Of a DNA stretch of 64,000 nucleotides, positions 5,356 through 62,148 are shown in pieces; position 1 is the first letter of the stretch; the number at the start of each line of letters is the position of its first letter. A program made the position numbers and the translations under genes. Source of the DNA: Candidatus Curtissbacteria bacterium RIFCSPLOWO2_02_41_11 (GTDB taxonomy: Bacteria > Patescibacteriota > Microgenomatia > Curtissbacterales > GWA2-41-24); the NCBI GenBank assembly GCA_001775055.1, contig MFBU01000014.1:120535-184534 (forward strand), read 5' to 3'. The notes below the pieces were generated by a model. It had not been told where the DNA came from and made no database searches. It saw only the letters and a program-made list of their open reading frames with translations.

Positions 5356-5420
5356 AGCTCTTTCTAAAAACCTCAATCCTTTGAACTAGGGTTTGACATA
5401 ACTTACCCAAACTTACTATA

Positions 5421-6035
5421 TTGAGCACAATTGTGAAGCGGATAGTCGTTTTAATCTCCAACAAAGGTACGGGTACAAACTTACAAGCAATCATTGATGG
5501 AGTAGAAAGTGGTCAAATCAATGCGCAGGTTGTTGCCGTCATCAGCGATACCGAAGAAGCGCTAGGATTACAACGGGCTAAAAAACACCACCTACCAATC
5601 GAAATTTGTCCCAAAAAAGAAGATTTGCTTTTTCTCCTAAAAAACCTTAATCCTGACTATATTTGTCTTGCCGGCTGGAAACAAATTATTTTAGATGAAG
5701 TGATTGATACATTCCCGAACCGTATTTTAAATACTCACCCCGGCCTTATTCCTGACACTATTGATGGGGTAGTCAATAATCCAGATGACACAGATGCCTT
5801 ATGGAACAGGGGCAAAATGACAGATAAGGCAATCCAGAATTTTTTTGATAATAAGGCTACATATGCCGGTTGTACTAATCACTTTTTATCTTATGAATTT
5901 GACTTTGGCCCGGTTCTTGGCAGATGCTTTGAAAAAATTCTGCCGAATGACACAGTAGATTCTCTCTATACTAGACTTAAGAAAAAAGAGAATGACCTAT
6001 ACGTAAAAGTTCTGCATAAACTTTGTAAAAGTTAG
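5421..6035 (+). CDS. purN: phosphoribosylglycinamide formyltransferase
   Basis: N-terminus IVVLISNKGTGTNLQAIIDG matches the PurN consensus (VLISGNGSNLQAII). Also LAGW..IL and NTHPGLIP (the NIHPSLLP motif). Carries about a 15-aa insertion after the HP motif. Confidence 0.7.
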   Translation: MSTIVKRIVVLISNKGTGTNLQAIIDGVESGQINAQVVAVISDTEEALGLQRAKKHHLPIEICPKKEDLLFLLKNLNPDYICLAGWKQIILDEVIDTFPNRILNTHPGLIPDTIDGVVNNPDDTDALWNRGKMTDKAIQNFFDNKATYAGCTNHFLSYEFDFGPVLGRCFEKILPNDTVDSLYTRLKKKENDLYVKVLHKLCKS

Positions 6036-48963: not shown

Positions 48964-49941
48964 ATGGCAAAAATATTAAGCCTAAAAACAAAAACAAACT
49001 TGGCAGTTACGCCGTTTCCGCCGTTTAATTTTGATACTACTGTTTTTAAACCTTCTCACTATCCAGATTCACTCAAGATATATCAAACAGGAAAGTACTG
49101 GTTCGCTATGAGATATAACAACAGGGTCTATGGAATCAAGATGAAAAACGAGGGGACTGTGGATAATCCAAAAATTATGATTACTATTTTTTCTGAATCT
49201 AAACTCGCAAAAACAGAAGTTGAAAGAGTAATTGACGAACTTAAATTTAGATTTGAATTTAGCCGCAATATTTCAGAGTTTTATAAAAAGTTCAAAAATG
49301 ACAAAATTCTCGTGCCATTTATTAAAAGATGTTATGGAATGCATGGGAGTTGTGCCCAAAGTTTATACGGACTTTTGATGATAGGGATTCTTCTACAAAA
49401 TACAGTAATTAGAAGAAGTGTTCAAATGACAAAAGACATGCTTTTAAAGTATGGAGTCAAAGTTAAGTTTGATAGTAAAGAAGTTTATGAATTTTGGGAA
49501 CCCAGAGACTTAAAAAATGTGCGGGAAGAAGATTTAAGAAAACTAAAAGTCGGGTATAGAGCAAAATTATTTATCAAACTTTCTAAAACGTTTGTTGAAG
49601 AAAAGATTGACGAATTTGAACTTAGACAATTATCTGTTGGGGATGCAAAGGAAAGACTCTTGAGACTGTATGGTGTTGGTCCGGAGACTGTTCGTATTTT
49701 ACTAGTAGAAGCTTTGCATCATTATGAAATTTTTGATCATGTTGCGCCTTGGCAACAAAAAATTCTATCAAGATTACTTTTTAATAAACAATTGGTTCCA
49801 ACCGAAAAAATAATCAAGTACGTTAAAACTCGTTGGGGAAAATGGTCAGCCCTTGCGATACTTTACATTTGGGAAGATATTTTCTGGCAAAGAAAAGAAG
49901 GGAAAAGGATCAATTGGCTCGAGAAAGAAATTAGATTATGA
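48964..49941 (+). CDS. HhH-GPD-superfamily DNA glycosylase-like protein (AlkA/Ogg-like)
   Basis: LRLYGVGPETVRILLVEALHHYEIFDHVAPW resembles the helix-hairpin-helix GVGxKTA motif with a downstream Asp, as in Ogg/AlkA. Confidence 0.4.
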   Translation: MAKILSLKTKTNLAVTPFPPFNFDTTVFKPSHYPDSLKIYQTGKYWFAMRYNNRVYGIKMKNEGTVDNPKIMITIFSESKLAKTEVERVIDELKFRFEFSRNISEFYKKFKNDKILVPFIKRCYGMHGSCAQSLYGLLMIGILLQNTVIRRSVQMTKDMLLKYGVKVKFDSKEVYEFWEPRDLKNVREEDLRKLKVGYRAKLFIKLSKTFVEEKIDEFELRQLSVGDAKERLLRLYGVGPETVRILLVEALHHYEIFDHVAPWQQKILSRLLFNKQLVPTEKIIKYVKTRWGKWSALAILYIWEDIFWQRKEGKRINWLEKEIRL

Positions 49942-50146: not shown

Positions 50147-50217
50147 TGCCGGATCGTCTAATGGTAGGACCGCAGACTCTGGATCTGCGTATCTAGGTTC
50201 GAATCCTAGCCTGGCAG
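50147..50217 (+). tRNA. tRNA-Gln (anticodon CUG)
   Basis: Hand-folded. U1 (bacterial tRNA-Gln hallmark), acceptor tgccgga. D-arm gtct/aatggta/ggac. Anticodon arm gcaga-ctCTGga-tctgc (U33, CTG at 34-36). T-arm ctagg-ttcgaat-cctag. 3' acceptor cctggca plus discriminator g. One A7:C66 mismatch. No encoded CCA. Confidence 0.65.
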
Positions 50218-50362
50218 CTGTGGCGATAAGAAAATTTGGCGGGCTTGACTCGCCATAGGCGGGTTGAATGGGACGACGGATTTCCCGCCAATGGCGGGAT
50301 AAACTGGCTTGCCACGTAATTGCGTGGATCCGTTTATCTAGCTTGTCCCGCTCTAAAGCGGG

Positions 50363-50386
50363 GGTTCGAGTCCTAGTCCGGCAGCT
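50363..50386 (+). repeat. duplicated 3' fragment of tRNA-Gln (T-loop plus 3' acceptor strand), candidate att-site remnant
   Basis: ggttcgagtcctagtccggcagct versus ggttcgaatcctagcctggcagct at 50196-50219. The 3' strand tccggca of this copy pairs perfectly with the tRNA 5' acceptor tgccgga. Confidence 0.55.
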
Positions 50387-50464
50387 AAATTTTGGCCACT
50401 TTGTTAGCCTCAAAAATTATCAAAAATAGACAATTTTTGGGATAACCTGGCTTGGATTCGAACT

Positions 50465-51076
50465 TTGGAATTGTATAATTTAATTATGAGTAGTCCGTTT
50501 CCAAACACGCTTTTCCATGCAATTTCTCAATCAAGATTACGAGAGGCGGTAACTAAGCCTACATTGCCTGGTCATTCAAAATTCCACTATGACCCAGAAG
50601 GCAAGATCCCCGGGATTTGGCTAGCAGATGAACTTAAATTTGTAGCATCAGATAATCCTTATGGGAAGGAAGAAACAGGTGAGATACTGGACATCTGGGA
50701 CAAAGATTTTATGCGGGAGGTTACGGGTCGAGATGATGCTGAGGCTTTAGTAATCAAACGCCAAAGGCCCGCAATTGTTCTTCAAGTCGAGGGGTTAGAT
50801 GAGGGCGACTTACTGCAACACCCTTTGTTGCACAATCATTTTTTTTACACAGGAGATATCCCGTGGGAAAAAGTTAAAAAATTTTTAGTTCCCATAAAAG
50901 ATAAGGAAGCTGAAGATACCGCTAGAGAGCTTGCAGAAACCCTCAATAGAAATGCAAGGCGTACTGTCGATGTTGAGACTTATGACCAAATGGCTTTTGA
51001 ACCAACATTCGAGATGAAGAAGGAATTACGAAATGAACTTAATCTTGGAGAAACCGGTAAAGGTAAATTAACATAA
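50465..51076 (+). CDS. hypothetical protein (first gene of right-hand higher-GC region)
   Basis: 203-aa ORF, no motif recognised. Confidence 0.35.
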   Translation: MELYNLIMSSPFPNTLFHAISQSRLREAVTKPTLPGHSKFHYDPEGKIPGIWLADELKFVASDNPYGKEETGEILDIWDKDFMREVTGRDDAEALVIKRQRPAIVLQVEGLDEGDLLQHPLLHNHFFYTGDIPWEKVKKFLVPIKDKEAEDTARELAETLNRNARRTVDVETYDQMAFEPTFEMKKELRNELNLGETGKGKLT

Positions 51077-51187
51077 GTATTGAATCTGAATGTCTATTTT
51101 AGTTTTGCAGAAACTGCACTGACTTCTGATAAACTAATTCGGGGTATTTGATCATTTCTACCCAATTTGCTGTTCGGAAATCATCAA

Positions 51188-51385
51188 CTACCCCAGCTCG
51201 TTTGTTTCTTTCGCCGTTAGAGAAGAATCAATCTTTCTCTTTATTCCTTTAGACTGTTTACCAATAAAATTTACAGGGCCATAAAAATGGACTTCAGTTT
51301 TGTTAAATGAATTAGTAGCTTCGGGGTGAAGTAAATCAGTTATTTTTGTCTTAAAGCTTGCTAAACCTTCAAGGATTTGTTTCAT
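51188..51385 (-). CDS. hypothetical small protein
   Basis: 65 aa, translationally coupled to the upstream ORF. Confidence 0.3.
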   Translation of the reverse strand: MKQILEGLASFKTKITDLLHPEATNSFNKTEVHFYGPVNFIGKQSKGIKRKIDSSLTAKETNELG

Positions 51386-51750
51386 TTTTTACCTAGTTCA
51401 ATAATAAAAACCTCTCCGATATCGGGTATGGTTTGTTTTTCCCAGTCATATCTTCCGGAATAAGTTTTCAAGTCTAGCCTGTTCGCTTTAAAGAAGGATT
51501 TGCCTGAAACAGTCGCCCCTGTTGTATCTCGGGTTATTTTAAGAATTCCGTTTTCTCGAACATTAATGAATTTAAATGCAATTGCTTCATTGCCGCTATC
51601 GTAAAATAACACGCAATATTTAAAGTTTGTAACGTTTGTTGATCTACAAAATCCAGAAGAAAGTCTTATGAGTCCGGATTTATTTATCCCAATTTTTGTA
51701 TCTCCTCTGGAATATACACCGTCGAACTTCTTGAATGAATAAGTTTTCAT
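51382..51750 (-). CDS. hypothetical protein
   Basis: 122 aa. Overlaps the next small ORF by ATGA, which suggests a two-gene operon. Confidence 0.35.
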   Translation of the reverse strand: MKTYSFKKFDGVYSRGDTKIGINKSGLIRLSSGFCRSTNVTNFKYCVLFYDSGNEAIAFKFINVRENGILKITRDTTGATVSGKSFFKANRLDLKTYSGRYDWEKQTIPDIGEVFIIELGKK

Positions 51751-52037
51751 ACTCGTATTGTAATACTAATTGTAATTCAAATCAAGTATCATGTATGACG
51801 TGTACAATGATCTAGAATACCTTGTCGGACCAGTTACCTTTGGGGTGATACAGTATGGAAATTAAGTTATAATGGCCGTAAGGGGTTCTGACCGTAGTAC
51901 TCAATTTTTCAGGACTATAACCCTAGGCACCGCGTCCGGGACTATATGATCGAAGGGGTCTACACCTGTACGCTCAGTTCTGACGAGCACCCCTAGGAGA
52001 CCGTCATCGCTAGAATAGCCTAATGGGACTTGCTAAA

Positions 52038-52058
52038 AGCCTCGTTAGGCTTTCTTTT
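52038..52058 (+). terminator. hairpin AGCCT-cgtt-AGGCT followed by TTTCTTTT (terminator-like), possibly the 3' end of an ncRNA or an attenuator ahead of 52133
   Basis: 5-bp GC-containing stem (extendable to 7 bp with 52007-52013 / 52045-52051) plus a T-run. Confidence 0.3.
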
Positions 52059-52132
52059 AATTCGAACCGACTATATAAAGCTAAGGGTAACCATAGAGAT
52101 CGGGGAACTCTGTTGTAAGTTATAATTCTTCC

Positions 52133-53005
52133 ATGAATGATTTGTTAACAGAACTAGGTCAGTTAATTAATAAAAAAAACTTGTCTCGTGGAGCAAAGAA
52201 AAGACTAAGAGTAGATTTAAATGCGATAAGTTTGCGTCTGGTTAAATTTGAATACGAAACTAGTGGAATAGTTGAGAATACTTTTGACGTCCCGGAAACA
52301 TTTAGACGAATGTACAAGCATCTCGATACTTATTCGAAGATTGCTAAAACATGGAGTTCTATATTATCTAATCTTCCTATAGATAAACAGACAAACATTT
52401 TAGATCTTTGTCCCGGCTACGCACCAAAAATTGAGTTAGCTTTATTTTATCTCGGATATAGAGGAACCGTTACCATAATTGATGAGGATAATACTTCAAT
52501 GAAGCAACTTGTCAAATTTATGGCACTATTTAACCCCCAATTCAAAATTGTAACCATGAAACGAGATTTATTTTCTCCTCTCAAAGAAAAATTTCATCTT
52601 GCCGTTGGCAACCATATAATTGATGATCTCATATTACATTACTTTGCTAAGAAGGCTGGAATTAATACTAATGAGTTCTATGAAAACGAGCAGGCTCTTG
52701 TCGACTTTTGGAAAAGGGTTCTTTTAAATAAAAACGAAAACCAAAAAGAAATTACTCAAAAAATATCCGACATATTTAAAACAATTATTGCAAACGGAGG
52801 TTATTTATGCTTGTCGCAATACAAGAGTTATATGGATAAAATGCTAGACTTAGAGAAGGAATTTTTATTCTCGAGAGCAGTTTTTACAAAAATAATCAAA
52901 AATTTAATGAGAAGCGAATTTATCAATTTAAACGTTAAAAATTACGAAGCGAAAAATCAATATTTTTCTGCTCATGATGTTGTAATTTTAAAAAAAACAA
53001 AATGA
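52133..53005 (+). CDS. hypothetical protein (weak Rossmann/SAM-methyltransferase-like pattern)
   Basis: ILDLCPGYAPK ... TIIDED ... LAVGNHIIDDL loosely resemble MTase motifs I, II and IV. Overlaps the next gene (ATGA). Confidence 0.3.
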   Translation: MNDLLTELGQLINKKNLSRGAKKRLRVDLNAISLRLVKFEYETSGIVENTFDVPETFRRMYKHLDTYSKIAKTWSSILSNLPIDKQTNILDLCPGYAPKIELALFYLGYRGTVTIIDEDNTSMKQLVKFMALFNPQFKIVTMKRDLFSPLKEKFHLAVGNHIIDDLILHYFAKKAGINTNEFYENEQALVDFWKRVLLNKNENQKEITQKISDIFKTIIANGGYLCLSQYKSYMDKMLDLEKEFLFSRAVFTKIIKNLMRSEFINLNVKNYEAKNQYFSAHDVVILKKTK

Positions 53006-54150
53006 TGGAAACACGAAGTATTCAGTCTCGAGATCTAGTCGATTTACGTGTAAAGCTTACCAACCTTGCTCGGAATATTAGAAGAACAACAATACCGGAT
53101 GACGTCGAGCTAATTTACCCACAATCATCAAGAGATGATACAGTTTTTTTTAAAGGATCAGTATTAAAGAGAAAAAGAATCGTTCTACTTGCCCCTGCAT
53201 GTGTTACTGCAACATGCACTATGTGCCCTTTACCAAACGAGGCTCTTGATCGAAAAACCAGGCCCATTTCGCCCGAGCAAATCATTCAACAGTTCGAATC
53301 ATCTTTTGAGGGAGAAAGGTCTCTCGATGACTACGAGCTAATAACTGTTTACAATAATGGAAATTTCTTTGCCGATTTAGAACTAGACCGGGCAGTTCGA
53401 AAGCACATTTACAAAAGAGTGGGCGAGAGCAAAGCATCAATACTTGTTGTGGAGTCACTGCCGCAATTCATTACGCCAGAAAAGGTTGAAGAAGCAAAAG
53501 AGCTTCTAGGGCAAAAAGAACTTGCGGTGGCTATCGGTTTACAGTCATCCAACGATTTAGTTCGAGAACTTGCTGTAAACTCAACATGCACAAAAGCTGC
53601 TTTCGAAAGAGCTGTGCGGTTGTTGGGGGAGAATGGATATAAACCGCTCACATTTCTTATGATCAAACCCCCATTTTTGACTGAAAAGGAGGGAATCGAG
53701 GATGCTGTAGGCTCCATAAAATATCTAGCAAGTTTGGGTATTGATGACCCTATATTATGCGCAACTCGAGTGGCACCGAACACTGTAGCAATGCTCCTTC
53801 GTGAGAAAGGGCTTTTTAATCCGCCATGGATTTGGTCAGTTGTTGAGGTTCTAAAAAAGAGTTCAACTGTTAGTCCTAGCAGTAGACCTCGAGTAGTGTT
53901 ATCAGAATTGAAGCCAGAAATTAACTTAGATTCCGCATGTCCTCAAAATTGCGATTTATGCAGTACTCGAATTATAGATTTGATAGATTCCTACAATAAA
54001 ACCGGTGACGTAAAAGTTTTTAGAGATGCAGATTGTGATTGTAGGGAAACTTATAAAGCGTATGTTGATTCTGTAGAAAAAGACATGGGGCGAGTTTCCC
54101 TTTTGGAGAGAGTCAGAGATTTTTTGGATGGTATATTAATAGAAAGTTGA
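53002..54150 (+). CDS. radical-SAM-like TIM-barrel enzyme with atypical CX4CX2C cluster motif
   Basis: LLAPACVTATCTMCPL (Cys-x4-Cys-x2-Cys). AIGLQSSNDLVRELAVNST...LTFLMIKPPFLTEKEGIEDAVGSIKYLASLGIDDP resembles the GxQS.ND...NR / downstream pattern of HemN/ELP3/TIGR01212-type radical SAM proteins. Additional Cys cluster CPQNCDLC...DCDC. Confidence 0.4.
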   Translation: MMETRSIQSRDLVDLRVKLTNLARNIRRTTIPDDVELIYPQSSRDDTVFFKGSVLKRKRIVLLAPACVTATCTMCPLPNEALDRKTRPISPEQIIQQFESSFEGERSLDDYELITVYNNGNFFADLELDRAVRKHIYKRVGESKASILVVESLPQFITPEKVEEAKELLGQKELAVAIGLQSSNDLVRELAVNSTCTKAAFERAVRLLGENGYKPLTFLMIKPPFLTEKEGIEDAVGSIKYLASLGIDDPILCATRVAPNTVAMLLREKGLFNPPWIWSVVEVLKKSSTVSPSSRPRVVLSELKPEINLDSACPQNCDLCSTRIIDLIDSYNKTGDVKVFRDADCDCRETYKAYVDSVEKDMGRVSLLERVRDFLDGILIES

Positions 54151-55922
54151 TTGAGATGCCAAAGACATATATCAACCATTGAAGACTTTTCACTGAAACC
54201 TATATATTTCATAAAATTTTTGAAGTAAGGATAAGTTTGCGATAATAATACGGGCTTTTCTAAGCTCTTATAAAATCCCACATTGAGTCTCCATAATTTG
54301 ATTGAAAATTCCAACTCTTCCGTAGGAGGTATCATTGCTCTACTGCGAAGTGAAACATAAGGCAGTAGATAAGGAACTCGGCAAATTTCACCGTCTGGTA
54401 AAGTTACCACTAGCCCAGAATCTTTTGAACCAATAATAAAGTCTCTTAAATCTACTACATCGATCAAATTGAAACTTTTTCCTGGTACGTACTTGCCCGT
54501 CTTTAAATCTTCGTGTAATAGCTTCAAGGTACTTTCTATCTTTATTCTCCGGGGTAATAGCGATAAAACCTTTCCTCCTGTATACCCGGTCGCAACATCA
54601 TCATCCACCAAAACATATGTTCCACTTGGGATATCTGAAATTTGCTTATCAACTAAGGGGTATCCAAGTCTACCAATTACAGCTCTTGGTTCTAGCTGTC
54701 CGTCACAGATATCAAAAAGCCTGGATACATATAATCTGTACCCACCATTTGTACAAACATCCATGTTTATTACTTTTTTAGATTTGTTGAGTACGTTGAT
54801 AAAATTTTGTTGTGATTTTAGATTTACGACAACTATTGAGTCTTTCGAAAAAATGGCTTGCAAATAGTAGACGAAATCATTCAAAAAACCTCTTTTTGCT
54901 TCTAGAACTTTTTGTTCACCATGGGATTTTGATAGTTTTTCAAGGGCCCAAAGGCCATCATTTCTTACAGCGTAAATTTTTTTTAAGGAGTCGTCACTTT
55001 TATAGAAGTTTTGGAAACTTATTTTTTTTCTCAATTCGCTTGAGGAAATACTTGGCTTCGTCCTAGATTGAGATGTAAAAATAATGTTTTTGGGTTTTGC
55101 TATTGGAACTTCGCGTGCAACATCCTCAAGTTTACTTTCGTAGCCCTCTCTTTTTACACAAACGCAACTGCCTTTATCTATAAATGCTCTCGAAAAAACA
55201 GCATTATCACTACCGAAAACATAAACAACTTCAATTTTTAGTCCCAAATGAAATTGAAGATAACCCTCTAGTCTTAATATTGCATCGGTATAAGTTATCG
55301 GCACCTTGTTATATCGCGCTTCCCATGTGTCAATCATCAACCAATCGCTGTCACGGATTGCTTTCTCGCAAAGATCTATTCGCGAAGACGAATCAAGGTT
55401 TAATGAATCTGTGTATTTATTCCATACATATTCATCATGTGATGGTGATATATAACCGCCAACAACGGTTTTATTTAATTTCTCAACCTCTAATTTTGCG
55501 AGTTTCATCATTTCGATATGCCCCGTGTGAACGGGCGAGAATCCACCGGTAGAAAACAAGACAACTGGGTGAAAACGCTTGTCTTTTTTATGCCGCTGCA
55601 AATTATCCGAAATTTTCTGAAAAGGGGTGCATAACCAATTATGGAAATCTAATTTAGTAAGCGATCCTGGTTCAAGTCCATCATCAAAAAATCCCGCTTC
55701 AATTACCGATTTTATGCTTTTATAAGCAAAATAAGTTTTTGAAAGAAATGGGTCTCGTAATATTTTCCACGCAAGCCTGAGATCGTTTATTTCGTACTTA
55801 TTTTCTTTTTTTAACCTTAGATAAGCAAGATCCAATTTAGAAGCAACATCAGTTCTTTTTACCCCAAACAACTTCCAGAGGTCTTCATTATTTTTTATTT
55901 TTAAATACATTAGTTCTCCCAA
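54051..55922 (-). CDS. fusion protein: NMN/NaMN adenylyltransferase-like nucleotidyltransferase domain plus C-terminal type-I phosphoribosyltransferase (PRPP-binding) domain
   Basis: VVLFSTGGFSPVHTGHIEMM (the (H/T)xGH nucleotidyltransferase motif). ISPSHDEYV and WLMIDTWEA parallel eukaryotic/archaeal NMNAT blocks (ISPVGDAYKK, WVEVDTWES). C-terminal YVLVDDDVATGYTGGKV is the PRPP-binding motif of type I PRTases/PRPP synthetase. Confidence 0.5.
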   Translation of the reverse strand: MGELMYLKIKNNEDLWKLFGVKRTDVASKLDLAYLRLKKENKYEINDLRLAWKILRDPFLSKTYFAYKSIKSVIEAGFFDDGLEPGSLTKLDFHNWLCTPFQKISDNLQRHKKDKRFHPVVLFSTGGFSPVHTGHIEMMKLAKLEVEKLNKTVVGGYISPSHDEYVWNKYTDSLNLDSSSRIDLCEKAIRDSDWLMIDTWEARYNKVPITYTDAILRLEGYLQFHLGLKIEVVYVFGSDNAVFSRAFIDKGSCVCVKREGYESKLEDVAREVPIAKPKNIIFTSQSRTKPSISSSELRKKISFQNFYKSDDSLKKIYAVRNDGLWALEKLSKSHGEQKVLEAKRGFLNDFVYYLQAIFSKDSIVVVNLKSQQNFINVLNKSKKVINMDVCTNGGYRLYVSRLFDICDGQLEPRAVIGRLGYPLVDKQISDIPSGTYVLVDDDVATGYTGGKVLSLLPRRIKIESTLKLLHEDLKTGKYVPGKSFNLIDVVDLRDFIIGSKDSGLVVTLPDGEICRVPYLLPYVSLRSRAMIPPTEELEFSIKLWRLNVGFYKSLEKPVLLSQTYPYFKNFMKYIGFSEKSSMVDICLWHLNQLSINIPSKKSLTLSKRETRPMSFSTESTYAL

Positions 55923-56872
55923 CCCCCTGGAACAAACCTCTTGTAGATATCGAAATGGACAGAAGGCGATTTGCCCAAATATTTATGCCTGTTGTATTGA
56001 TGTATTTTTTCTAAACGCTTAGATAACTTTTCAAATTGTTTCTTCGACTTTGCGTTTAGTTTTTTAGAAAATTCTATCTTTTCTTTTCGAGTAAATGTTA
56101 GGTACGTGATATATAATTCCACAAACTCATATGTTGTTCCAAATACTTCTTCATCTGTTCTTCCATCAAACATATCACCACTTGGTTTTATATTGATAAT
56201 TTCCTCAGGAATATTTAAGATTTTTGCAACTCGACACACCTCACTTTTATGAATATCTGAAATAATTTGTAAGTCTACCATCCCATCTGAGGCTTTGCCA
56301 AAATACCCTAGATAAGCTCCTTCATCACGATTTGTAGTTCCACAGACTACTGCAGGAGAATTTGCCTGATTTAAAAGGCTAGTAATATAATAGAGAGTCG
56401 GCGTTTTTATATAAGCCGCTAACTGCCCGGCTGCCCAGTTTTTGCCTTTGAGATTAATTGACTTATCTATTGTGTTTTTAAGAACTGTGTGGCTCTTTGT
56501 TAAATCAACAACAATCTTTTTTGAATTGAAATACTTCGCAATCTCCTCTCCTCTTTTTGAAGCACCTTTTTGATTGGTTGCCGCTAATGGAGAAAAAACA
56601 GGCATCAAGATTGCATAAATATTTTTAATAGGTGAATTTTTGTGACGCGAGGCATTATGAACTATTCCCAAAACTACGGCAGAGTCAACGCCTCCGCTTA
56701 CAGCAACAACACAAGACTTTAGTTTAAAATCACTCATGTATCGATTCAGCAACATCGATTTATTTTTAATATAAAGCTGTGGATTAAAATCTCTTTTTGC
56801 ACGAATAATAGTAAGGACATCAAGTAATCCTTGCTCCAAAGTTTTTCCTGTTTGGGGATTATTAATTCTCAT
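55910..56872 (-). CDS. nadE: NH3-dependent NAD+ synthetase-like PP-loop amidotransferase
   Basis: SCVVAVSGGVDSAVV (SGGxDS PP-loop). GTTNRDEGAYLGYFGKASDGMVDLQIISD parallels NadE GTDHAAE.ITGFFTKYGDGGTDINPL. C-terminal TTYEFVELY parallels VTYDNIDDY. Confidence 0.65.
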   Translation of the reverse strand: MRINNPQTGKTLEQGLLDVLTIIRAKRDFNPQLYIKNKSMLLNRYMSDFKLKSCVVAVSGGVDSAVVLGIVHNASRHKNSPIKNIYAILMPVFSPLAATNQKGASKRGEEIAKYFNSKKIVVDLTKSHTVLKNTIDKSINLKGKNWAAGQLAAYIKTPTLYYITSLLNQANSPAVVCGTTNRDEGAYLGYFGKASDGMVDLQIISDIHKSEVCRVAKILNIPEEIINIKPSGDMFDGRTDEEVFGTTYEFVELYITYLTFTRKEKIEFSKKLNAKSKKQFEKLSKRLEKIHQYNRHKYLGKSPSVHFDIYKRFVPGGWEN

Positions 56873-56916: not shown

Positions 56917-57855
56917 TTATCCTGAGGTTCTGACATATCCATACCCTCCACCCTCTGAAGACCTACGAGGCGGACGAGGGGTAGGCGGATTATAAGCAGG
57001 AGATGAGGATGCAGAACTTGACGATCTTCTACTTCGACTAGGGCTGGTCACCTCTTCCTCCTCTGCTACTTCTTCTTTTTGCAGTGCCGCGATCAGGTCT
57101 ATAGCACCCTTATGAACTTCAACAATTGATACCAAAGACTCTGTACCGTCCCTGGCACTTTTCAGTGGAATTGTGATCGAGTTATTAACTGGGTCTTTAT
57201 CGATATTTGCAAAATCTGGTTGAAATTTGCTATCTTCCAGTTGTTTGGGCACATTAATTTTATCTATCCCTTTTTTAGACCCAACTACTATTTTATACTG
57301 ATTCTTTTTGCCACGTGTGAACACAAACACAATGTCTTCTTCCGGATCAAGTTCCTTTCCATTTTTATCTTCAAAAGAAAACGGTATTCTGGCAATTTGC
57401 GGTTTTAAACCCTCTCGTATCAAATTTCTTTCTGCAATTCCATTTGTAAGTAAATCAACGTTAATCGAATGAAGTTCGAAAGGGTTTTGGGATTTACTTT
57501 CGAAAGCTTGTCGGAGTTTTTCGCGAAGTTCTATAAGTTCTTCATCGTTGGTTAATTCTAGCGCAGATGTAATTCTAAAAAAAAATGCTTCATCTCCATT
57601 CTCAATAGAGTCGGCAAGTGCCTTTTTTACTTTTTCTCTTTCTTCTCCCAAGCGTCTCTCGTTAATCCGAATCTGGCCATCAACAATCATAATTGGTGTG
57701 TCGGATTCTAGCTCTACTATTTCTGTATAAATTAAACCAGTTAAGAATCTTGGCCCCATCGAAGCCAACGGAATTCCCTCAGTAGGTTGGTCAGTTCCAA
57801 GGGGACTATCTGTTACTTGATCTGGGTGTTCTGATTGTTCAGATGGTCTTGGCAC
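56917..57855 (-). CDS. hypothetical protein with Ser/Arg/Pro-rich low-complexity C-terminus
   Basis: 312 aa. C-terminal SPSRSRRSSSSASSSPAYNPPTPRPPRRSSEGGGYGY. No motif recognised. Confidence 0.35.
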   Translation of the reverse strand: MPRPSEQSEHPDQVTDSPLGTDQPTEGIPLASMGPRFLTGLIYTEIVELESDTPIMIVDGQIRINERRLGEEREKVKKALADSIENGDEAFFFRITSALELTNDEELIELREKLRQAFESKSQNPFELHSINVDLLTNGIAERNLIREGLKPQIARIPFSFEDKNGKELDPEEDIVFVFTRGKKNQYKIVVGSKKGIDKINVPKQLEDSKFQPDFANIDKDPVNNSITIPLKSARDGTESLVSIVEVHKGAIDLIAALQKEEVAEEEEVTSPSRSRRSSSSASSSPAYNPPTPRPPRRSSEGGGYGYVRTSG

Positions 57856-57895: not shown

Positions 57896-59362
57896 TTAAC
57901 TTATCTGCCAGTCGTGTTGCCATTGTTCAACTTGGACGCCCTTCTTTGCAGCTCTTCCAACCCACTCTGGAGGTCTTGGATTGTTTTTTGACTCGCCTAG
58001 TACATCTTCTACTCCGGACGCTTTGATTAAATCCAAAACTATTTCTTGATCTTCTCTATACATTCCTGCCAAATATTCTTGATAAACTGCCTCCATGAAT
58101 AAATCGTGCCAGTTATCGTTGGTTTTAACCTGCCCACTTCTGAATAACTCGTCAACATCTATAAGGGTCGTTTGGGCAGCTTTTATGCTATCAAGAATCC
58201 TTAATAAATTACGTCGAGTGTAAACGTAAGAACCTCCTTTGATGTCCTTTTCTGATCCAATTTTGCCAAGAGACGCTAAGTTTGAAAGATCACCTTGAAA
58301 AGCGGCTAACCATTTAATAACGGCATCCACGTTTGGTATGTTTTCAAGATCTCTGTACTCTGTTCTTACGTCTTTTTCTCCCTTATAACGCCTGTTCTGC
58401 CAAACTATATCGGGTTGTTCACCTTTGATTAAAAATCTCAAAAACTCTTCATATTCCTTAGTGGTTAATCCTTCAACTATTCTATCTTGCAGTCTGTTTC
58501 TCCTTGCCTCGGATTCTTCAAACCTGCCTCCACCGATGCCAAAAGGATTTTGAGCTGCTACATACCAATACCTGCTATCAAGACCAATAACCCCAGGTAC
58601 AATTCCACCATTGTCAATTATTGATTGCTCCTCAGGCGTTAAAGGTCTTATAATTTCTCCTTCATGTTCGACAATTCTTAATTGAGCCATTCTTTCAATT
58701 GCTGAGTTTTCCCGCTCAATAACATTACCCGGTGCTAAATTTGGTTCGTCAGCTCCATAAACGCTGCCATACATCATAGATCCTGCGAGTGTTCCATTTT
58801 GCCAGCGCCATTGGATAGTATCATCGAGACCATCAATCCCAAGAGCAGCGGCAATTTTTTTACTTTCAAGGAGCGTCAGAGGTCTTGATTGTTTCTCTGC
58901 AGACTCGACAATTTCTTTGAGGCTCTCAGGTAAGTCTGGATCAGCTAGGAGTTCTTTAAAACGAACTGCAAGTTTGGCATCAGCGGGTACAAATCTTCCA
59001 ATTGTGTCACCAGGATCGGAATCCTTAGAATAATTATGTCTCAGATAACTCCTGTTAGTAAGCGCACAAATCACCTCAGCTGCATATGATTTCGAAACAC
59101 CTGTAGGGCCTTCGTTTCTAGATGCAATCCCTCCTTTGAGCCGAACTGCCATATCTCTTATCAAAAGAACAGTTGGTGTATCCCAACAGGTAGAGGCTTT
59201 TAATAGCTCGATTTTCGGGATGAAACGTCTAGCATTAACATCTTCAGGCAATGGTAACCTGTCTAAAACAACATCCAGAACCCTTACTTGGTTTTCTTTA
59301 GGATATTCCTGAATGACTGGGACTTCCCCTAATTTTCGTTCAATGTCTCCCTTTTCTGTCAT
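57896..59362 (-). CDS. AAA+ ATPase, MoxR/dynein-related (AAA_5-like) clade
   Basis: Walker A GPTGVSKS. Walker B-like VYGADEPNLAP. Start is placed at Met 59362 (MTEKGD...), 1 nt after the upstream stop. The tracked ORF extends further in a non-coding frame. Confidence 0.55.
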   Translation of the reverse strand: MTEKGDIERKLGEVPVIQEYPKENQVRVLDVVLDRLPLPEDVNARRFIPKIELLKASTCWDTPTVLLIRDMAVRLKGGIASRNEGPTGVSKSYAAEVICALTNRSYLRHNYSKDSDPGDTIGRFVPADAKLAVRFKELLADPDLPESLKEIVESAEKQSRPLTLLESKKIAAALGIDGLDDTIQWRWQNGTLAGSMMYGSVYGADEPNLAPGNVIERENSAIERMAQLRIVEHEGEIIRPLTPEEQSIIDNGGIVPGVIGLDSRYWYVAAQNPFGIGGGRFEESEARRNRLQDRIVEGLTTKEYEEFLRFLIKGEQPDIVWQNRRYKGEKDVRTEYRDLENIPNVDAVIKWLAAFQGDLSNLASLGKIGSEKDIKGGSYVYTRRNLLRILDSIKAAQTTLIDVDELFRSGQVKTNDNWHDLFMEAVYQEYLAGMYREDQEIVLDLIKASGVEDVLGESKNNPRPPEWVGRAAKKGVQVEQWQHDWQIS

Positions 59363-59363
59363 T

Positions 59364-59822
59364 TCAACTAACCTTTCGTAAGTCCAACAGGTGGTCTGTG
59401 ATCTCCCGCATTTTATCTTCTGTATTTTGCTCTGACTCGTTTGTGACGAGGAAGATTTTTGCTTGACTCGGGATTGTAGTGTTTCGCAGGTCAAATGACC
59501 CCTGATGAATATCAAACTTGTTTGATTCCCGCAGTTTTATCAGTTGATCGTAAATAACTGGATCAAAATTTACAGAATTTGCGAAAACAACTATTACTTT
59601 TCCTTTTGAAAGATCCTCGGCAAGGCTTTGGAGAAATCCGAATACATCATTTTTTTCTTCATGAGTAACTTCCGCATAATCTACGTTCAAAAGACTAAAA
59701 AGGTCCCTGATCTGGTTTCTAACATTTGTAGGCGAAATAATTCCCTCTATTGTGTTATACGAGGAGCTGTGAGGGTGTAAATGGAAACTTAGAAATCTAG
59801 CAAGCTGTTTTTGTGCGTTCAT
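59364..59822 (-). CDS. hypothetical protein (possible N-terminal partner of the AAA+ ATPase)
   Basis: 152 aa. Stop TGA then A then ATG of the AAA+ gene (TGAaATG), i.e. two separate adjacent genes rather than a frameshift. Confidence 0.35.
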   Translation of the reverse strand: MNAQKQLARFLSFHLHPHSSSYNTIEGIISPTNVRNQIRDLFSLLNVDYAEVTHEEKNDVFGFLQSLAEDLSKGKVIVVFANSVNFDPVIYDQLIKLRESNKFDIHQGSFDLRNTTIPSQAKIFLVTNESEQNTEDKMREITDHLLDLRKVS

Positions 59823-59823
59823 A

Positions 59824-62148
59824 TTAACGATAGAAAAACTCTGGATGCTTTACCATATACTCCATGATTATAGCAAAAGCCCTGCCGAATTCTTCGGCGT
59901 CTGTGTATGAGTTTCCAACCTCATCAAAATTAGCACCAAGAGCTCTCGCAATATCTCTTTTTACTCTTTCATGGAGTTCAGGATAAGAATCATTAACGAA
60001 ATCGGTTCCTGGACCGATACCAAAGCCTGCTGTTACTACGCTTCTGTCAGACCTTACTTCACGAAGCAAATCGAGTACTTCTTCCTGCGATGTGCTGGTT
60101 GGCTCACCATCTGTTAAGGTAATAAAATAATTGTTGTCCAGTGGTAGACTGGACATTCTTCTTTTTAAATATCTGTAACTTGCTTGTGTAGCCTCATATG
60201 TAGGTGTACCACTTCCTCCACAATCGGATAGCATTTTTCCAAGTACATCTCTATCTTGATTTGTTAGTTTCTTTTTTCCAAAATCCTTATACAATCTGAC
60301 TTTTCCTTTGAAACTGTCTCTAAAACCTATAATTGCAAATTCAAGACCGAATCTATTCATTACTTCAGAAAAGGCTGCGACCATCTTAAACGTTTCAAAA
60401 ATTTTACCTTCCATTGATGGACTAAGATCAACTAAAAGTAGAAATCTATAGCTTTTTTCGGTGGGTCTACCTTTCGCTTCAAAAGCATTATATTTTCTGG
60501 GATCTGCCTCCATTTGCATTGCTTTTCTCATTGATGGCCTCAAACCGGTTGAGGAATAGCGAATACTCGGTTCTTCCGTCGGTTCAAAAAGTGTTTTAAA
60601 TTCTTTTTCTAGTCTTCTTCTGACAGCATCTACATCAGGCATAGATAGGACAGATTGGTAGGGATCCTCTTGAATTGTTTCGAGTGCTTCTTTTCGCCTT
60701 TTTTCCATATCTCTTGCAACTCTTTCTGCCTCCTTTTGTTGCTCCTCTTTTGCTTGACTAGTTTTTTCTCCTACTCGCCTTTCTTTGTGAGATTCTTGGT
60801 GTCGAGGATCATTTATATGCCCTTTTAGCTTTTCGTTTGCTTCGTCTTCTACATCCTCCAGATCTTCTCTTGCTCTCTGCTCGAGACTGTCTTTCGACTC
60901 ACTCGAAAGATTATCGTAAGCATCTTCTATAGCTTTCTTTGTTTTGTCAGAAAAGTCGTCCCAAGGAATTCTCATGTCAGATCCATTCTCACTTCGACCA
61001 TCCTCTTCTCTGCCTTGAGCACTCGATCCTTGTGTTCCCTCAGCAGGTTCAGCACTTTCTTCTTGCACATTCATACCTTGTTCACTACCAGAAGAATCTC
61101 CTGACTGTTCTCCTTGCGTTTGTTGCGTTTGACCATTAGCCCCAGATTGACCGTCTTCTCCTGTCTGTTTTTCTTGATCTTTCTCTGCTCTTTCTTGCCC
61201 TTGAGGTTCACCAGACTGCTTGGGACCTTTTTGGCCTTGTTGTCGATTAGCCTCTTTTACTTTTTCTCTAATTTCGTCTTGTACATCTTTAGGTAGCGCA
61301 TCAAACGGTATAACCATAATTTGTCCTCCTCCATGCTGGCCCTGGCCACCACCTTGCTGATCTTGAGAGAGCATGTCTTTTATCATATTGACCATATTCT
61401 GGTCTTTTAAGGATTCCTCTACTAATTGTTTATATTTGGGCCAGATCTTTTCTATGAAGACTTCAGTGCTTGCGATAGCTTCTCTCTGAACATCAAATTC
61501 ATCCTTAGTTGTGGGGGTTATTCGGTAAAACTCATCAAATGCGTCGATCGTTTCCCTAATTGTTCTTCTGACATCCTCATCTGGGATTTCTTCCAAAAAA
61601 TGTTCTTTGTCTTCTTCAGTCTTGAGCCCATCTGTAAACTCTCTTTTGTACCAATGATGTATTATTTCTCCTCCCCATTGCATGAATTTAGGTACGTACC
61701 CTAATGAATTCCGGGCGTCTGCTAGCATGCCTTTGTAGTCTAAGCCTCCTCCAGGACTCAGGTCGCGTTCTATATACGCTCTGATCCAGTCTCTGGAGCC
61801 AGGCCTCATACTCATACCGGCTTGGTTTGCTCTGGGATCCTCACAAGCGTTGAAACCAAAGGAAAAACCTGGTTCTTGCCATAAATCAGTAACGTGTTCC
61901 GCTCTTGATACGAGTCTATGATTACCTTCATGAGCAGCAATACCTTTGACAACATCCTCGGGTTCTGTCGCCAAGTCCTTAGCATCCATATTTACGTGAT
62001 TCTTAACAAAATCCCAATGCCAACCACTTCCCCATGGACCAACACCAACTGTCATGCCATAATCTCCACCCATAAAAAGTGCAATTACATCTGCCTTTCT
62101 TCTTATAGTTTCGTCTATCTGGGGTTGTCTTTCGGTTTGATCATTCAT
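59824..62148 (-). CDS. large VWA-domain protein with N-terminal HExxH (putative zincin-like) region and acidic/Gln-Gly-rich linker (CbbO/NorD/DUF2201-like MoxR partner)
   Basis: C-terminal MIDAS LLLVDLSPSMEG ... T ... D (von Willebrand A). N-terminal AAHEGNHRL (HExxH). Central (Q/G/E)-rich low-complexity segment. 774 aa. Confidence 0.6.
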   Translation of the reverse strand: MNDQTERQPQIDETIRRKADVIALFMGGDYGMTVGVGPWGSGWHWDFVKNHVNMDAKDLATEPEDVVKGIAAHEGNHRLVSRAEHVTDLWQEPGFSFGFNACEDPRANQAGMSMRPGSRDWIRAYIERDLSPGGGLDYKGMLADARNSLGYVPKFMQWGGEIIHHWYKREFTDGLKTEEDKEHFLEEIPDEDVRRTIRETIDAFDEFYRITPTTKDEFDVQREAIASTEVFIEKIWPKYKQLVEESLKDQNMVNMIKDMLSQDQQGGGQGQHGGGQIMVIPFDALPKDVQDEIREKVKEANRQQGQKGPKQSGEPQGQERAEKDQEKQTGEDGQSGANGQTQQTQGEQSGDSSGSEQGMNVQEESAEPAEGTQGSSAQGREEDGRSENGSDMRIPWDDFSDKTKKAIEDAYDNLSSESKDSLEQRAREDLEDVEDEANEKLKGHINDPRHQESHKERRVGEKTSQAKEEQQKEAERVARDMEKRRKEALETIQEDPYQSVLSMPDVDAVRRRLEKEFKTLFEPTEEPSIRYSSTGLRPSMRKAMQMEADPRKYNAFEAKGRPTEKSYRFLLLVDLSPSMEGKIFETFKMVAAFSEVMNRFGLEFAIIGFRDSFKGKVRLYKDFGKKKLTNQDRDVLGKMLSDCGGSGTPTYEATQASYRYLKRRMSSLPLDNNYFITLTDGEPTSTSQEEVLDLLREVRSDRSVVTAGFGIGPGTDFVNDSYPELHERVKRDIARALGANFDEVGNSYTDAEEFGRAFAIIMEYMVKHPEFFYR

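Follow-up and report, generated by a model that had tools for sequence, protein, structure and literature searches.

A bacterial and phage sister clade of the radical SAM enzyme RaSEA in a conserved neighbourhood of NAD genes

The radical SAM family that contains RaSEA and QueL serves in archaeosine synthesis and queuine salvage. It has two characterised members, and both use 7-deazaguanines. ArcS, as described in PMC11298593, is active solely in complex with RaSEA, and lysine is the nitrogen donor. QueL, in the account given in PMC11130926, regenerates preQ1 from queuine. In phage thymidine hypermodification, amino acids are appended and then sculpted by radical SAM, PLP-decarboxylase, lyase and acetyltransferase enzymes (PMC8989533).

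Two kinds of NAD system are also relevant. In the glutamine-dependent NAD synthetase, NadE is joined to a nitrilase-type glutaminase domain. The phage pathways NARP2 (NAMPT and NMNAT) and NARP3 (PnuC and a NadR-like protein) restore NAD. NAD biosynthesis is regarded as essentially fully mapped, and we know of no radical SAM step in it. In the literature searched, no radical SAM enzyme is described as taking part in NAD reconstitution or as accompanying NadE in phages, and TIGR01210 is not mentioned.

The locus described here comes from a Candidatus Curtissbacteria genome. The window is the whole stretch of DNA that was analysed, 64,000 nucleotides long, and all coordinates are positions within it. 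Its features are as follows.

50147-50218, plus strand: tRNA-Gln(CTG), immediately upstream of P in L001, a related genome, but displaced from it in the window by about 1.9 kb
52017-52062, plus strand: conserved terminator-like hairpin and T-run inside a supposed leader, found also in L001 after tRNA-Gln
52121-52126, plus strand: TATAAT, 6 nt upstream of the ATG of P, read from the sequence and conserved in L001
52133-53005, plus strand: P, a 290-aa partner with a predicted class-I SAM-methyltransferase fold, whose stop overlaps the start of R (ATGA)
53002-54150, plus strand: R, a predicted 382-aa radical SAM enzyme of a bacterial and phage sister clade of RaSEA (TIGR01210-like)
53200-53226, plus strand: codons for C67-x4-C72-x2-C75, the inferred radical-SAM [4Fe-4S] ligands
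53950-54042, plus strand: codons of a further conserved site of four Cys, C317-x2-C320 ... C345-x-C347, a putative metal site
54051-54150, both strands: convergent overlap of the 3' ends of R and N
54051-55922, minus strand: N, a 623-aa fusion of a J-like N-terminal region (recognised by eye), a eukaryote-type NMN/NaMN adenylyltransferase (PF01467) and a C-terminal half bearing a motif like a PRPP loop (VLVDDDVATGYT)
55910-56872, minus strand: E, a 320-aa NadE-like NAD synthetase of the NH3 type (PP-loop; PF02540, E 1.1e-31)
56917-57855, minus strand: a312, a protein with no family match that belongs to one minus-strand string of genes with N and E, conserved in window/L007, L001/L002/L088 and L003/L008
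57896-59515, minus strand: b539, a protein that faintly matches AAA_5 (MoxR-like) and is conserved in L016 and L096 as well
59364-59822, minus strand: c152, a conserved small protein
59824-62148, minus strand: d774, a large protein whose C-terminal part is a VWA domain (PF00092, 26.1 bits; cut-off 23.8), conserved in L003 and L096
62145-62936, minus strand: e263, a conserved protein
62933-63925, minus strand: f330, a predicted ATP-grasp amino-acid ligase, cyanophycin-synthetase/GshB-like (TIGR02068, E 2.9e-70; PF08443)

R almost certainly belongs, as a genuine radical SAM enzyme, to the RaSEA/QueL (TIGR01210-like) family. Its match to Pfam PF04055 is a marginal pass, with 30.4 bits against a gathering score of 29.5 (E 5.2e-7). 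The best family profile is TIGR01210, which agrees with the radical-SAM identity proposed in the initial annotation. Fold comparison shows that the partial TIM-barrel of R, in which GLQSSND forms residues 179-185, resembles solved radical SAM enzymes; the closest solved structure is QueL (PDB 6p78).

The open reading frames of 290 and 382 codons that the initial annotation had named are both present, as is the N-terminal triad CVTATCTMC with its Cx4Cx2C spacing. C67, C72 and C75 are 100% conserved among 111 full-length homologues of R and invariant in all three clades. The spacing had been taken as a non-canonical oddity. It is instead the mark of a family already known: RaSEA proteins of archaea that score above the TIGR01210 cut-off show Cx4Cx2C or Cx7Cx2C, and the cluster motif of QueL 6p78 is CIWGKCSFC. 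Thus, Cx4Cx2C is not idiosyncratic. A C-terminal Cys cluster had also been claimed, and here the picture is divided. C317, C320, C345 and C347 are 95-99% conserved in the same 111 homologues, but C313, the first Cys of CPQNCDLC, is conserved in merely 37%. The four-Cys consensus is Cys in the bacterial, actinomycete and archaeal groups, with C345 at 82% in the CPR-type group. R therefore carries the whole Cys signature of the family, Cx4/7Cx2C followed by a C-terminal CxxC...CxC.

Membership in the family does not make R a RaSEA. R matches TIGR01210 with E 3.3e-57 and 194.1 bits, which is under the equivalog cut-off of 212.15; bacterial members score 173-207 bits and archaeal members 332-397. 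Across the archaeal, actinomycete and CPR-type clades, 25 alignment columns keep an identical residue at 90% or more. A midpoint-rooted neighbour-joining tree of 79 sequences, a simple distance tree without support values, splits cleanly, with the archaea on one side and the actinomycete and CPR-type bacteria on the other. Residues specific to the bacterial R clade are L153, Q181 and C253, where archaeal proteins have arginine, glutamate and asparagine, and a helix with R370. Because of the score gap and of the tree split with its clade-specific residues, the R clade is placed as sister to archaeal RaSEA and not orthologous to it. Some R homologues carry the JGI name 'archaeosine synthase beta-subunit'. 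The score gap, the phylogeny and the gene context argue against this name for the bacterial and phage clade, where it is carried over from archaea and is an annotation hazard.

Archaeal loci were inspected as a control. There, the conserved neighbour of RaSEA is the PP-loop subunit of GMP synthase (34 of 41 loci). This is not taken as an independent link between radical SAM and PP-loop enzymes, because the loci are mostly from related Methanosarcinales.

The partner gene P is coupled to R by the ATGA overlap that had been claimed, which can be read at 53002-53005 (...AAA ACA AAA TGA / ATG ATG GAA). For P, in which a faint methyltransferase-like pattern had been noted earlier, fold comparison gives a Rossmann-like, class-I methyltransferase fold. 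Sequence searches are less generous. The P of the window has no match in Pfam or NCBIfam, and its profile has none against PDB sequences even at E<=10; a distant P-like protein in another locus (L016) matches Methyltransf_23 weakly. Motif I of P is DLCPGYAPK, of which the central Gly alone is invariant, and the acidic D117 at the end of strand 2 is conserved. No relatives of P were found in IMG/VR. In L004, a 241-aa gene downstream of R was considered as a flipped partner and rejected (hhalign probability 0.1%).

A structured non-coding leader of about 370 nt had been proposed upstream of P. The spacer is 382 nt long (51751-52132). It has no match in an Rfam scan at E<=1, in which the tRNA is the sole match, and 51875-52065 folds no better than shuffles (z = -1.27), so a riboswitch or structured leader for P is rejected. 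The spacer holds instead the terminator-like hairpin, which with its T-run spans 52036-52062 and ends about 70 nt ahead of the ATG. In L001 this hairpin comes right after the tRNA-Gln gene and has a compensatory change in its stem, so the simplest reading is that it closes a tRNA transcription unit lying upstream. The TATAAT could be the -10 box of a leaderless transcript.

On the opposite strand, N and E look like real NAD enzymes. The adenylyltransferase domain of N matches a PDB NMNAT (9rpk, E 3.5e-11), and its motifs GGFSPVHTGH, ISPSHDEY and DTWEA align to those of plant and human NMNATs (GxFxPxHxGH, ISPxxDxY, DxWE); against TIGR00482 it scores 57, below the cut-off of 112. The C-terminal half of N has no Pfam match. 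Its invariant DDD..G.T loop aligns to the PRPP loops of APRT, HGXPRT and ComF, below threshold (E 0.04-0.5). E reaches 105.9 bits against TIGR00552 (nadE; cut-off 63.65) and E 1e-16 against PDB 2e18, and its SGGVDS aligns to the PP-loop SGGxDS of NadE structures; against the full-length equivalog NF010587 it scores 118, below the cut-off of 255.

The 3' ends of R and N overlap, as had been claimed at about 100 nt; from the ORF coordinates it is exactly 100 nt. The suggested causes, antisense coupling or a mis-extended R frame, do not hold up. The C-terminus of R is conserved in all homologues, while only the window, L001 and L089 have the tail of about 30 residues on N. On these grounds the idea that the R frame was mis-called or over-extended is rejected, and the alignments indicate that the overlap is due to a lineage-specific tail on N. 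The convergent gene had been treated as an unrelated neighbour. Yet N and the NadE-like E are the most consistent companions of R across lineages, and this companionship is the main clue to the function of R.

R and P sit in a conserved and repeatedly reshuffled neighbourhood with NAD genes. Twenty-two de-duplicated lineages of R were compared; they are mutually related, so the counts are not independent events. E or N occurs within the fetched flanks of R in 12 of the 22, N in 11 and E in 11, and at least one of E, N, P and f330 in 15. All four are absent from the fetched flanks in the remaining seven, three of which are loci that are short or at a contig edge. At least eight gene orders are seen around R, and the neighbourhood recurs in several CPR lineages, in MAGs of other bacteria and in contigs of jumbo phages. 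In addition, many matches to the N family have the same longest-contig size as the R matches.

The core is R with E and N. Frequent extras are P, the ATP-grasp ligase, PnuC, a NadR-like NMNAT/ribosylnicotinamide kinase, NAMPT, Nudix and 2OG oxygenases. In L016 and L019 the three genes form co-directional R>E>N operons. In L108 the order is R>E and the two genes overlap by 1 nt; in L111, a jumbo-phage contig from IMG/VR, it is E>R, overlapping by 8 nt, and then N. In all four loci the ends of E and R overlap or almost abut. A contig with a phage-sheath gene reads Nudix-NAMPT-E-N-x-R (L110), and another has PnuC and NadR-like genes upstream of R>P>ATP-grasp/rSAM>..>E>N (L107). A minimal R-E-N triad without local accessories is found in Collierbacteria, Shapirobacteria and phage loci. 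Where P occurs without R, PnuC and/or a NadR-like gene lies directly upstream of it.

The accessories also occur as neighbours and fusions. The f330 family adjoins P in L092, L096, L098 and L103, and in L013 and L107 the f330-type ATP-grasp domain forms a fusion with a radical SAM/SPASM enzyme. E is fused to a 2OG oxygenase in L092, and a PhyH-type oxygenase adjoins P in L010. Two mobile elements (L112, L113) carry E-N-P clusters without R. These include a PLP decarboxylase and radical SAM enzymes different from R (two across L112/L113), as well as a GNAT and a short member of the P family. Actinomycete homologues of R lie in sugar/nucleoside-type biosynthetic clusters without E or N. Known anti-phage defence systems and phage families were also searched. 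PADLOC gave no match for any of ten cluster proteins, PHROG gave none for R, P and N and only 'NAD synthetase' for E, and a tblastn search with R found no match in 50,697 deposited phage genomes.

For the bacterial and phage clade, function is read wholly from gene context and analogy. On this footing a functional link of R to the NAD-type genes is quite probable. We infer that R acts in pyridine-nucleotide metabolism and not on 7-deazaguanine in tRNA, which points to a radical step, so far undescribed, in the making or altering of NAD. Whether R uses C-N lyase chemistry on a pyridine-nucleotide intermediate is an even call. Taken together, an R of the RaSEA/QueL family with a NAD-gene neighbourhood, a pyridine-nucleotide role and C-N-cleaving chemistry is the best overall explanation, favoured by a modest margin over its negation.

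By analogy with the two characterised members of the family, the Cx4Cx2C [4Fe-4S] cluster of R would cleave SAM, and the 5'-deoxyadenosyl radical would take a hydrogen from a carbon bonded to nitrogen. The C-N bond would then break, with the nitrogen retained on the side chain of the heterocycle. A specific form of this, 'append and trim', is tentative. In it, E would adenylate the nicotinate carboxylate of NaAD (or NaMN) and couple an amino-acid or amine donor in place of free ammonia, and R would strip the carbon skeleton of the donor, leaving the carboxamide and so NAD. P, the ATP-grasp ligase and the other variable enzymes may extend or tailor the appended group, or yield a modified product.

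Several observations weigh against the overall explanation. E resembles an ordinary NH3-dependent NadE, and since such enzymes work without a partner, R may not be required for amidation. The seven lineages without companions and the actinomycete homologues also count against it, and the phosphoribosyltransferase assignment of N is sub-threshold (best E 0.04). For the clusters of L112 and L113, a pathway that tailors a modified product is as good an explanation as plain NAD synthesis, or a better one.

The cluster may produce a modified pyridine dinucleotide or another NAD-derived small molecule instead of ordinary NAD, a reading that is somewhat unlikely. E would ligate an amine or amino acid to the nicotinate carboxylate, and R, P (by methylation), the ATP-grasp ligase (by adding more amino acids), the SPASM radical SAM enzyme, 2OG oxygenases, GNAT and PLP decarboxylase would tailor it. 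The product could be a cofactor, a signal, or a NADase-resistant surrogate of NAD in phage-host conflict. The varied accessory set is typical of tailoring enzymes, and the ATP-grasp/radical SAM/SPASM fusions, the E-oxygenase fusion, the PhyH-type oxygenase and the two mobile elements all suit this reading, as do the occurrence in jumbo-phage contigs and the adjoining vWA/MoxR-like module. Append-and-sculpt chemistry also has a precedent in phage thymidine hypermodification. However, the minimal R-E-N triads lack these accessories locally, PADLOC is silent, and CPR genomes are small and presumably in need of a plain NAD route. To our knowledge, no modified pyridine dinucleotide of the proposed type has been described.

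It is improbable that R is instead a QueL-like salvage lyase that acts on a conjugated or N-substituted pyridine from the environment and frees nicotinamide, nicotinate or their nucleoside, with the released compound feeding E and the PRT-like and NMNAT domains of N. In its favour, the nearest solved structure, that of QueL, belongs to a C-N lyase that works in salvage, the salvage genes PnuC, NadR-like and NAMPT abound in the context, and CPR bacteria live by scavenging. This would leave the tight coupling of R and E, with their overlapping genes, unexplained, along with P and the ATP-grasp ligase, and it has no candidate substrate.

Synteny could also exist without shared function, with R and P acting on an unrelated substrate such as a peptide. 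The seven lineages without local companions favour this reading, and ATP-grasp and SPASM radical SAM neighbours are typical of peptide maturation. It is nonetheless very improbable. Membership is kept while order is shuffled, start and stop codons overlap, and this recurs in several CPR lineages, in other MAGs and in phage contigs; as an order-of-magnitude estimate, a nadE present in one copy would fall by chance within about 8 kb in about 1-2% of cases in a genome of about 1 Mb.

R could also be a genuine enzyme of archaeosine or 7-deazaguanine, in effect a bacterial RaSEA with tRNA or DNA as its substrate, P in the place of ArcS and the NAD genes incidental. This reading has the best family match, the JGI name and the substrates of both relatives in its favour but is very unlikely indeed, given a score below the equivalog cut-off with a clear gap to the archaeal proteins, putative substrate-side residues unlike those of archaeal RaSEA, no TGT, PUA, QueC, QueD or QueE Pfam label among the called genes of the twelve neighbourhoods examined, and a NAD-gene association that recurs in many gene orders and in phages.

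If R does act with E on pyridine nucleotides, the pair could, speculatively, be a new kind of NAD synthetase, in which a donor is ligated to NaAD and its skeleton is removed by radical SAM chemistry, or, with the accessories, the builder of a novel N-substituted nicotinamide dinucleotide. It would be chromosomal in CPR bacteria, and in jumbo phages it would stand beside NAMPT and Nudix as a NAD-restoring or NAD-diversifying counter-defence. The consequence would be either a new route by which NAD gains its amide nitrogen or a whole family of molecules derived from NAD. Both matter for the cofactor supply of ultra-small symbiotic bacteria and for the phage-host conflict over NAD+ (NARP1-3).

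The known systems resemble this locus to different degrees. Several loci, phage contigs among them, place gene kinds of NARP2 and NARP3 next to R, P, E and N: PnuC, an HTH-less NadR-like NMNAT/RNK, NAMPT, Nudix and NMNAT. The two NARP texts searched mention no radical SAM enzyme, NadE or ATP-grasp ligase, and NARP pathways belong to phages, whereas the R-E-N triad is also chromosomal in CPR bacteria. The glutamine-dependent NAD synthetase is alike in concept, a PP-loop synthetase with a dedicated nitrogen-supplying partner. There the partner is a glutaminase, and here the candidate partner would be a radical SAM enzyme.

Phage thymidine hypermodification shares the logic of placing an amino acid on a base and then sculpting or trimming it, and its tailoring toolkit is like that of L112 and L113. 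Its enzymes (amino acid:DNA transferase, radical SAM isomerase, PLP decarboxylase, flavin lyase or acetyltransferase) are of other families without sequence kinship to R or P, and its substrate is DNA. QueL is just 19% identical to R and has about 230-250 residues, so that the C-terminal 150 or so residues of R, with the four-Cys site, lie beyond its coverage. It works in queuosine salvage, while R is found among NAD genes.

RaSEA gives the best profile match; it works with ArcS and ArcTGT on preQ0-Lys15 in tRNA. R has the same Cx4Cx2C-type cluster motif and C-terminal CxxC...CxC site and is likewise genetically coupled to a partner enzyme. It differs in showing GLQS where RaSEA has GLE(T/S), in L153 and C253, and in the extra C-terminal helix bearing R370. 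Its context is also different: ArcS, TGT and PUA are absent from the neighbourhoods examined, the partner has a predicted methyltransferase fold, and the neighbours are NAD genes. In the append-and-trim scheme, the roles of E and R would parallel the addition of lysine to preQ0 by ArcS and its trimming by RaSEA.

The consistent genomic partners of the radical SAM protein R are genes of NAD synthesis and NAD salvage. The features concerned are as follows.

50147-50218: functional tRNA-Gln
52017-52062: terminator-like hairpin and T-run, in the spacer upstream of P
52133-53005, plus strand: P, 290-aa ORF, partner of R
53002-54150, plus strand: R, 382-aa ORF
54051-55922, minus strand: N, 623-aa ORF convergent with R
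55910-56872, minus strand: E, NadE-like gene, next after N

Candidatus Curtissbacteria bacterium GW2011_GWC2_38_9, a member of the candidate phyla radiation (CPR), has a deposited protein identical to R, under the name 'Radical SAM domain protein'. The initial annotation took R for a radical SAM enzyme, and sequence and predicted fold bear this out. Its motifs are present: CVTATCTMC is C67-x4-C72-x2-C75, GLQSSND occupies residues 179-185, and the listed C-terminal cysteines are there. R lies narrowly above the gathering score of Pfam Radical_SAM (30.4 against 29.5 bits), and the triad C67/C72/C75 is invariant in 111 full-length homologues. In the same homologues C253, C317, C320, C345 and C347 show 95-99% conservation, and C313 just 37%. 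Neither result that would have refuted the radical SAM reading, a triad that varies among homologues or a match to another family, was obtained. The single strong specific NCBIfam match is TIGR01210, the archaeosine-biosynthesis radical SAM protein RaSEA (E 3.3e-57). The cysteine spacing had been called non-canonical; it is the ordinary signature of this known family, whose archaeal members have Cx4Cx2C (CRWRRCNMC in a Thermococci MAG) or Cx7Cx2C.

By these comparisons R falls in a bacterial sister clade and is not a RaSEA orthologue, because the tree is split, residues differ and scores stay below the cut-off. R scores 194.1 bits against an equivalog cut-off of 212.15; five archaeal proteins reach 332-397 bits with this curated model, and five other bacterial proteins 173-207. 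For the tree, 80 loci were fetched from named genomes and 79 distinct proteins aligned. In this distance tree Euryarchaeota stand apart from bacteria, which form an actinomycete clade and a 'CPR-type' clade containing R. At otherwise conserved positions bacteria have GLQS, L153 and C253 where archaea have GLE(T/S), R and N. The C-terminal helix with R370 is a bacterial feature, and the four-Cys site C317/C320/C345/C347 is common to all three clades. A 124-aa antisense ORF within R (53409-53783, minus strand), with similar ones in eight loci, is most likely an artefact of the coding constraints on R and not a gene.

P and R are coupled as reported: the tetranucleotide ATGA holds the TGA stop of P and the ATG start of R. 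P is a methyltransferase-fold protein, as had been suspected, without a place in the profile libraries searched. P has a degenerate motif I, DLCPGYAPK, in which G95 is invariant, and conserves an acidic D117 after strand 2 and a cluster of N160, H161, D164 and D165. SAM binding is plausible.

The 382-nt spacer upstream of P had been described as a structured non-coding leader. It contains a hairpin and T-run, at 52036-52062 within the element listed above. The likeliest reading of the spacer is the end of a tRNA unit that adjoins an insertion, because an Rfam scan gave no match at E<=1, the fold is unremarkable (z = -1.27) and the hairpin is tied to a tRNA-Gln in a related genome, L001 (66-74% protein identity). 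There the same hairpin, with a compensatory stem change, lies directly 3' of a tRNA-Gln(CTG) about 165 nt upstream of P. In the window, about 1.75 kb separates tRNA-Gln and hairpin. This DNA (50147-52132 region) looks like a small insertion relative to L001, and carries three small unannotated ORFs (203 aa, plus; 65 aa and 122 aa, minus) without family matches. A GC-rich stretch just before the hairpin (51880-51975) bears only a weak resemblance to a tRNA 3' half. A TATAAT in the 52121-52133 region, kept in L001, ends 6 nt ahead of the P start codon, and no Shine-Dalgarno sequence is visible there. This position suggests a possible leaderless transcript for the P-R operon. Upstream of tRNA-Gln, a 325-aa protein (48964-49941, plus strand) shows weak similarity to 8-oxoguanine DNA glycosylase (HhH-GPD).

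The convergent overlap exists and covers exactly 100 nt of the R 3' end. It had been taken for possible antisense coupling or a mis-extended frame. According to the alignments, it arises instead from a read-through tail that N has gained in one lineage and that runs antisense to a constrained R 3' end: every homologue conserves the R C-terminus (…ERV..FL…, R370), and the last ~30 residues of N occur solely in the window, L001 and one further locus, L089. All other N proteins end just past a conserved C.WH..L motif. The tail (54051-54140, residues ~595-623) ends in a conserved ...ETYA(L), and this conservation is probably passive since it is antisense to the conserved ...YKAYV... coding sequence of R. 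The initial annotation was thus largely correct in observation, right on the radical SAM enzyme and its methyltransferase-like partner, and wrong on the leader and the meaning of the overlap.

It also missed the functional link of R to the convergent genes, which recur beside R across lineages. By sequence, E and the central domain of N pass as NadE and NMNAT relatives. E matches PF02540 (E 1e-31) and NadE structures and exceeds the TIGR00552 cut-off. The N domain is clearly like eukaryote-type NMN/NaMN adenylyltransferases (E 3.5e-11), with catalytic and NMN-binding motifs aligned. The C-terminal half of N has an invariant PRPP-loop-like DDD..G.T; APRT, HGXPRT and ComF matches are all sub-threshold, and its PRT assignment is unproven. 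Residues 1-112 (55590-55922) include ~110 residues conserved across lineages (LRLAWKILRDP..Y, EAGFFDD), by eye like J-domain helices lacking the HPD motif; a profile search with them gave no match. Beyond E, f330 is an ATP-grasp ligase nearest to cyanophycin-synthetase and GshB domains (E 2.9e-70). Within the string a312-b539-c152-d774-e263, a VWA domain was recognised in d774 and a faint AAA signal of MoxR type in b539.

When the proteins encoded around R and P in the window were searched against all fetched loci, R and P proved to be part of a gene set that is conserved yet reshuffled.

Gene orders (a-f stand for a312, b539, c152, d774, e263 and f330)
Window, L001: P R> <N E a b c d e f
Collierbacteria, Shapirobacteria: R> <N E
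Peribacteria: <P <f <(radical SAM fusion) R> <N <E P>
Peregrinibacteria: (ATP-grasp + radical SAM + SPASM fusion)> P> R>
L016, L019: R> E> N>, co-directional
L092, L096, L098, L103: P> f>
L107: PnuC + NadR-like upstream, then R> P> ATP-grasp/radical SAM/SPASM> .. E> N
L108: R> E, 1-nt overlap, then a second radical SAM enzyme
L110, contig with a phage tail-sheath gene: Nudix, NAMPT, E, N-like, 202-aa gene, R
L111, 231.7-kb IMG/VR jumbo-phage contig: E> R (8-nt overlap) > 161 aa > N
L112 (5005-14442) and L113 (5026-14421), gut-type metagenomes: variant cluster without R

Collapsing R at 90% identity left 22 non-actinomycete lineages, which are not independent. Within the fetched flanks, E was found in 11 of the 22, N in 11, either in 12 and P in 10; at least one of E, N, P and f330 was found in 15. 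Chance adjacency of a single-copy gene within ~8 kb of a ~1-Mb genome is estimated by us at ~1-2%. The many gene orders and overlapping start and stop codons argue for functional coupling of R with this neighbourhood, and mere synteny without shared function is unlikely. Where P occurs without R, the gene or genes immediately upstream of it encode PnuC (E 1e-60) and/or a NadR-like NMNAT and ribosylnicotinamide kinase (AAA_28, E 1e-37).

Several fusions and neighbours were also seen. L013 (380-2488, Peregrinibacteria) and L107 (9993-12125) encode fusions of the ATP-grasp ligase with a second, SPASM-bearing radical SAM domain, the two in either order. A 606-aa, partly f330-like protein with a radical SAM domain (L010 3387-5207, Peribacteria) showed no ATP-grasp or SPASM Pfam. 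L092 (11037-12806) has a NadE-like protein with a C-terminal 2OG-Fe(II) oxygenase, and a PhyH-type oxygenase follows P in L010 and L100. The b539-c152-d774-e263 string (57896-62936, minus strand; VWA C-terminal in d774) accompanies P, f330 and R in several lineages (also L003, L016, L096). The domain TCAD9, whose definition comes from 'ternary' conflict systems of vWA-MoxR type, occurs in neighbours at L010 and L013. A vWA-MoxR module may be linked to the NAD cluster. PADLOC models matched none of the ten cluster proteins. L108 also encodes ArdcN/MPTase-PolyVal and TROVE/vWA_Ro60 proteins (2866-5683), and R of L109 is surrounded by numerous small, unannotated, co-directional ORFs; the two contigs may derive from phages or mobile elements. 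R was not found in deposited phage genomes or PHROGs. The longest contigs of many of the closest N relatives are the same size as those of R matches.

The characterised relatives of R are RaSEA and QueL. RaSEA forms archaeosine from preQ0-Lys15 in tRNA, and ArcS shows activity solely in complex with it (PMC11298593); lysine is thus a nitrogen donor, and the remainder is cut off. QueL regenerates preQ1 from queuine (PMC11130926). Both reactions break a C-N bond and leave nitrogen on a heterocycle side chain. By analogy, R would break a C-N bond beside the side chain of a pyridine nucleotide. Among its companions E is the most closely coupled, and as a PP-loop enzyme E activates the carboxylate of nicotinate, so an 'append and trim' scheme is the likeliest of those considered. 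E would join NaAD to a donor, either an amine or an amino acid, and R would then remove the donor's carbon skeleton, leaving the carboxamide.

As specified, this scheme is tentative. E looks like an ordinary NH3-dependent NadE, and companion genes are absent in some R lineages. Actinomycete R homologues (L006, L020-L043; 34-40% identity) lack E, N and P and lie in sugar/nucleoside-type clusters. In Nocardia sp. (L006) the neighbours are two inosine-uridine nucleoside hydrolases, a SIS-PfkB-nucleotidyltransferase fusion, an epimerase, P450, SHMT, GT9 heptosyltransferase and carbamoyltransferase; the locus looks like a heptose-nucleoside natural-product cluster. R is also replaceable: L112 and L113 run PLP decarboxylase-like > different radical SAM enzyme (291 aa, Cx3Cx2C) > E > N (GNAT-fused in L113) > GNAT > SPASM-type radical SAM enzyme > 619 aa > .. 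> short P-family protein. Their DNA appears to be mobile elements (integrase, resolvase, Mob_Pre, RhuM). N-family proteins of this ~565-aa type form protein clusters, some of which contain >100 sequences.

Alternately, the appended group could be kept and tailored into a modified dinucleotide, an about equally tentative reading. The variable accessory enzymes fit this equally well, with P, the ATP-grasp ligase, SPASM radical SAM, 2OG oxygenases, GNAT and PLP decarboxylase as candidate tailoring set. Phage thymidine hypermodification is a precedent for append-then-tailor logic (PMC8989533). A salvage lyase in the manner of QueL is a third option. A genuine archaeosine role is unlikely despite the family match; twelve context look-ups found no TGT, PUA or Que Pfam labels among called genes. 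At archaeal RaSEA loci (L044-L087) a GMP synthase PP-loop subunit (GMP_synt_C) lies immediately upstream in 34 of 41; here too, a PP-loop amidating enzyme is the neighbour of a protein of this radical SAM family. The pairing may be inherited synteny, because these loci are mostly from related Methanosarcinales.

The searchable literature yielded no account of TIGR01210 members from bacteria, none of an association of NadE and NMNAT with a radical SAM enzyme, and none of such an enzyme in the NARP pathways. An append-and-trim NAD synthetase or a new NAD-derived molecule, if confirmed, would constitute a new pathway. Compared with known systems, R stands outside RaSEA by score, phylogeny and context. 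Under append-and-trim, R would be the radical analogue of the domain that acts as glutaminase in glutamine-dependent NadE. The PnuC and NadR-like pair upstream of P in loci without R is the same pair that makes up the recently characterised phage NARP3 pathway (PMC13464706).
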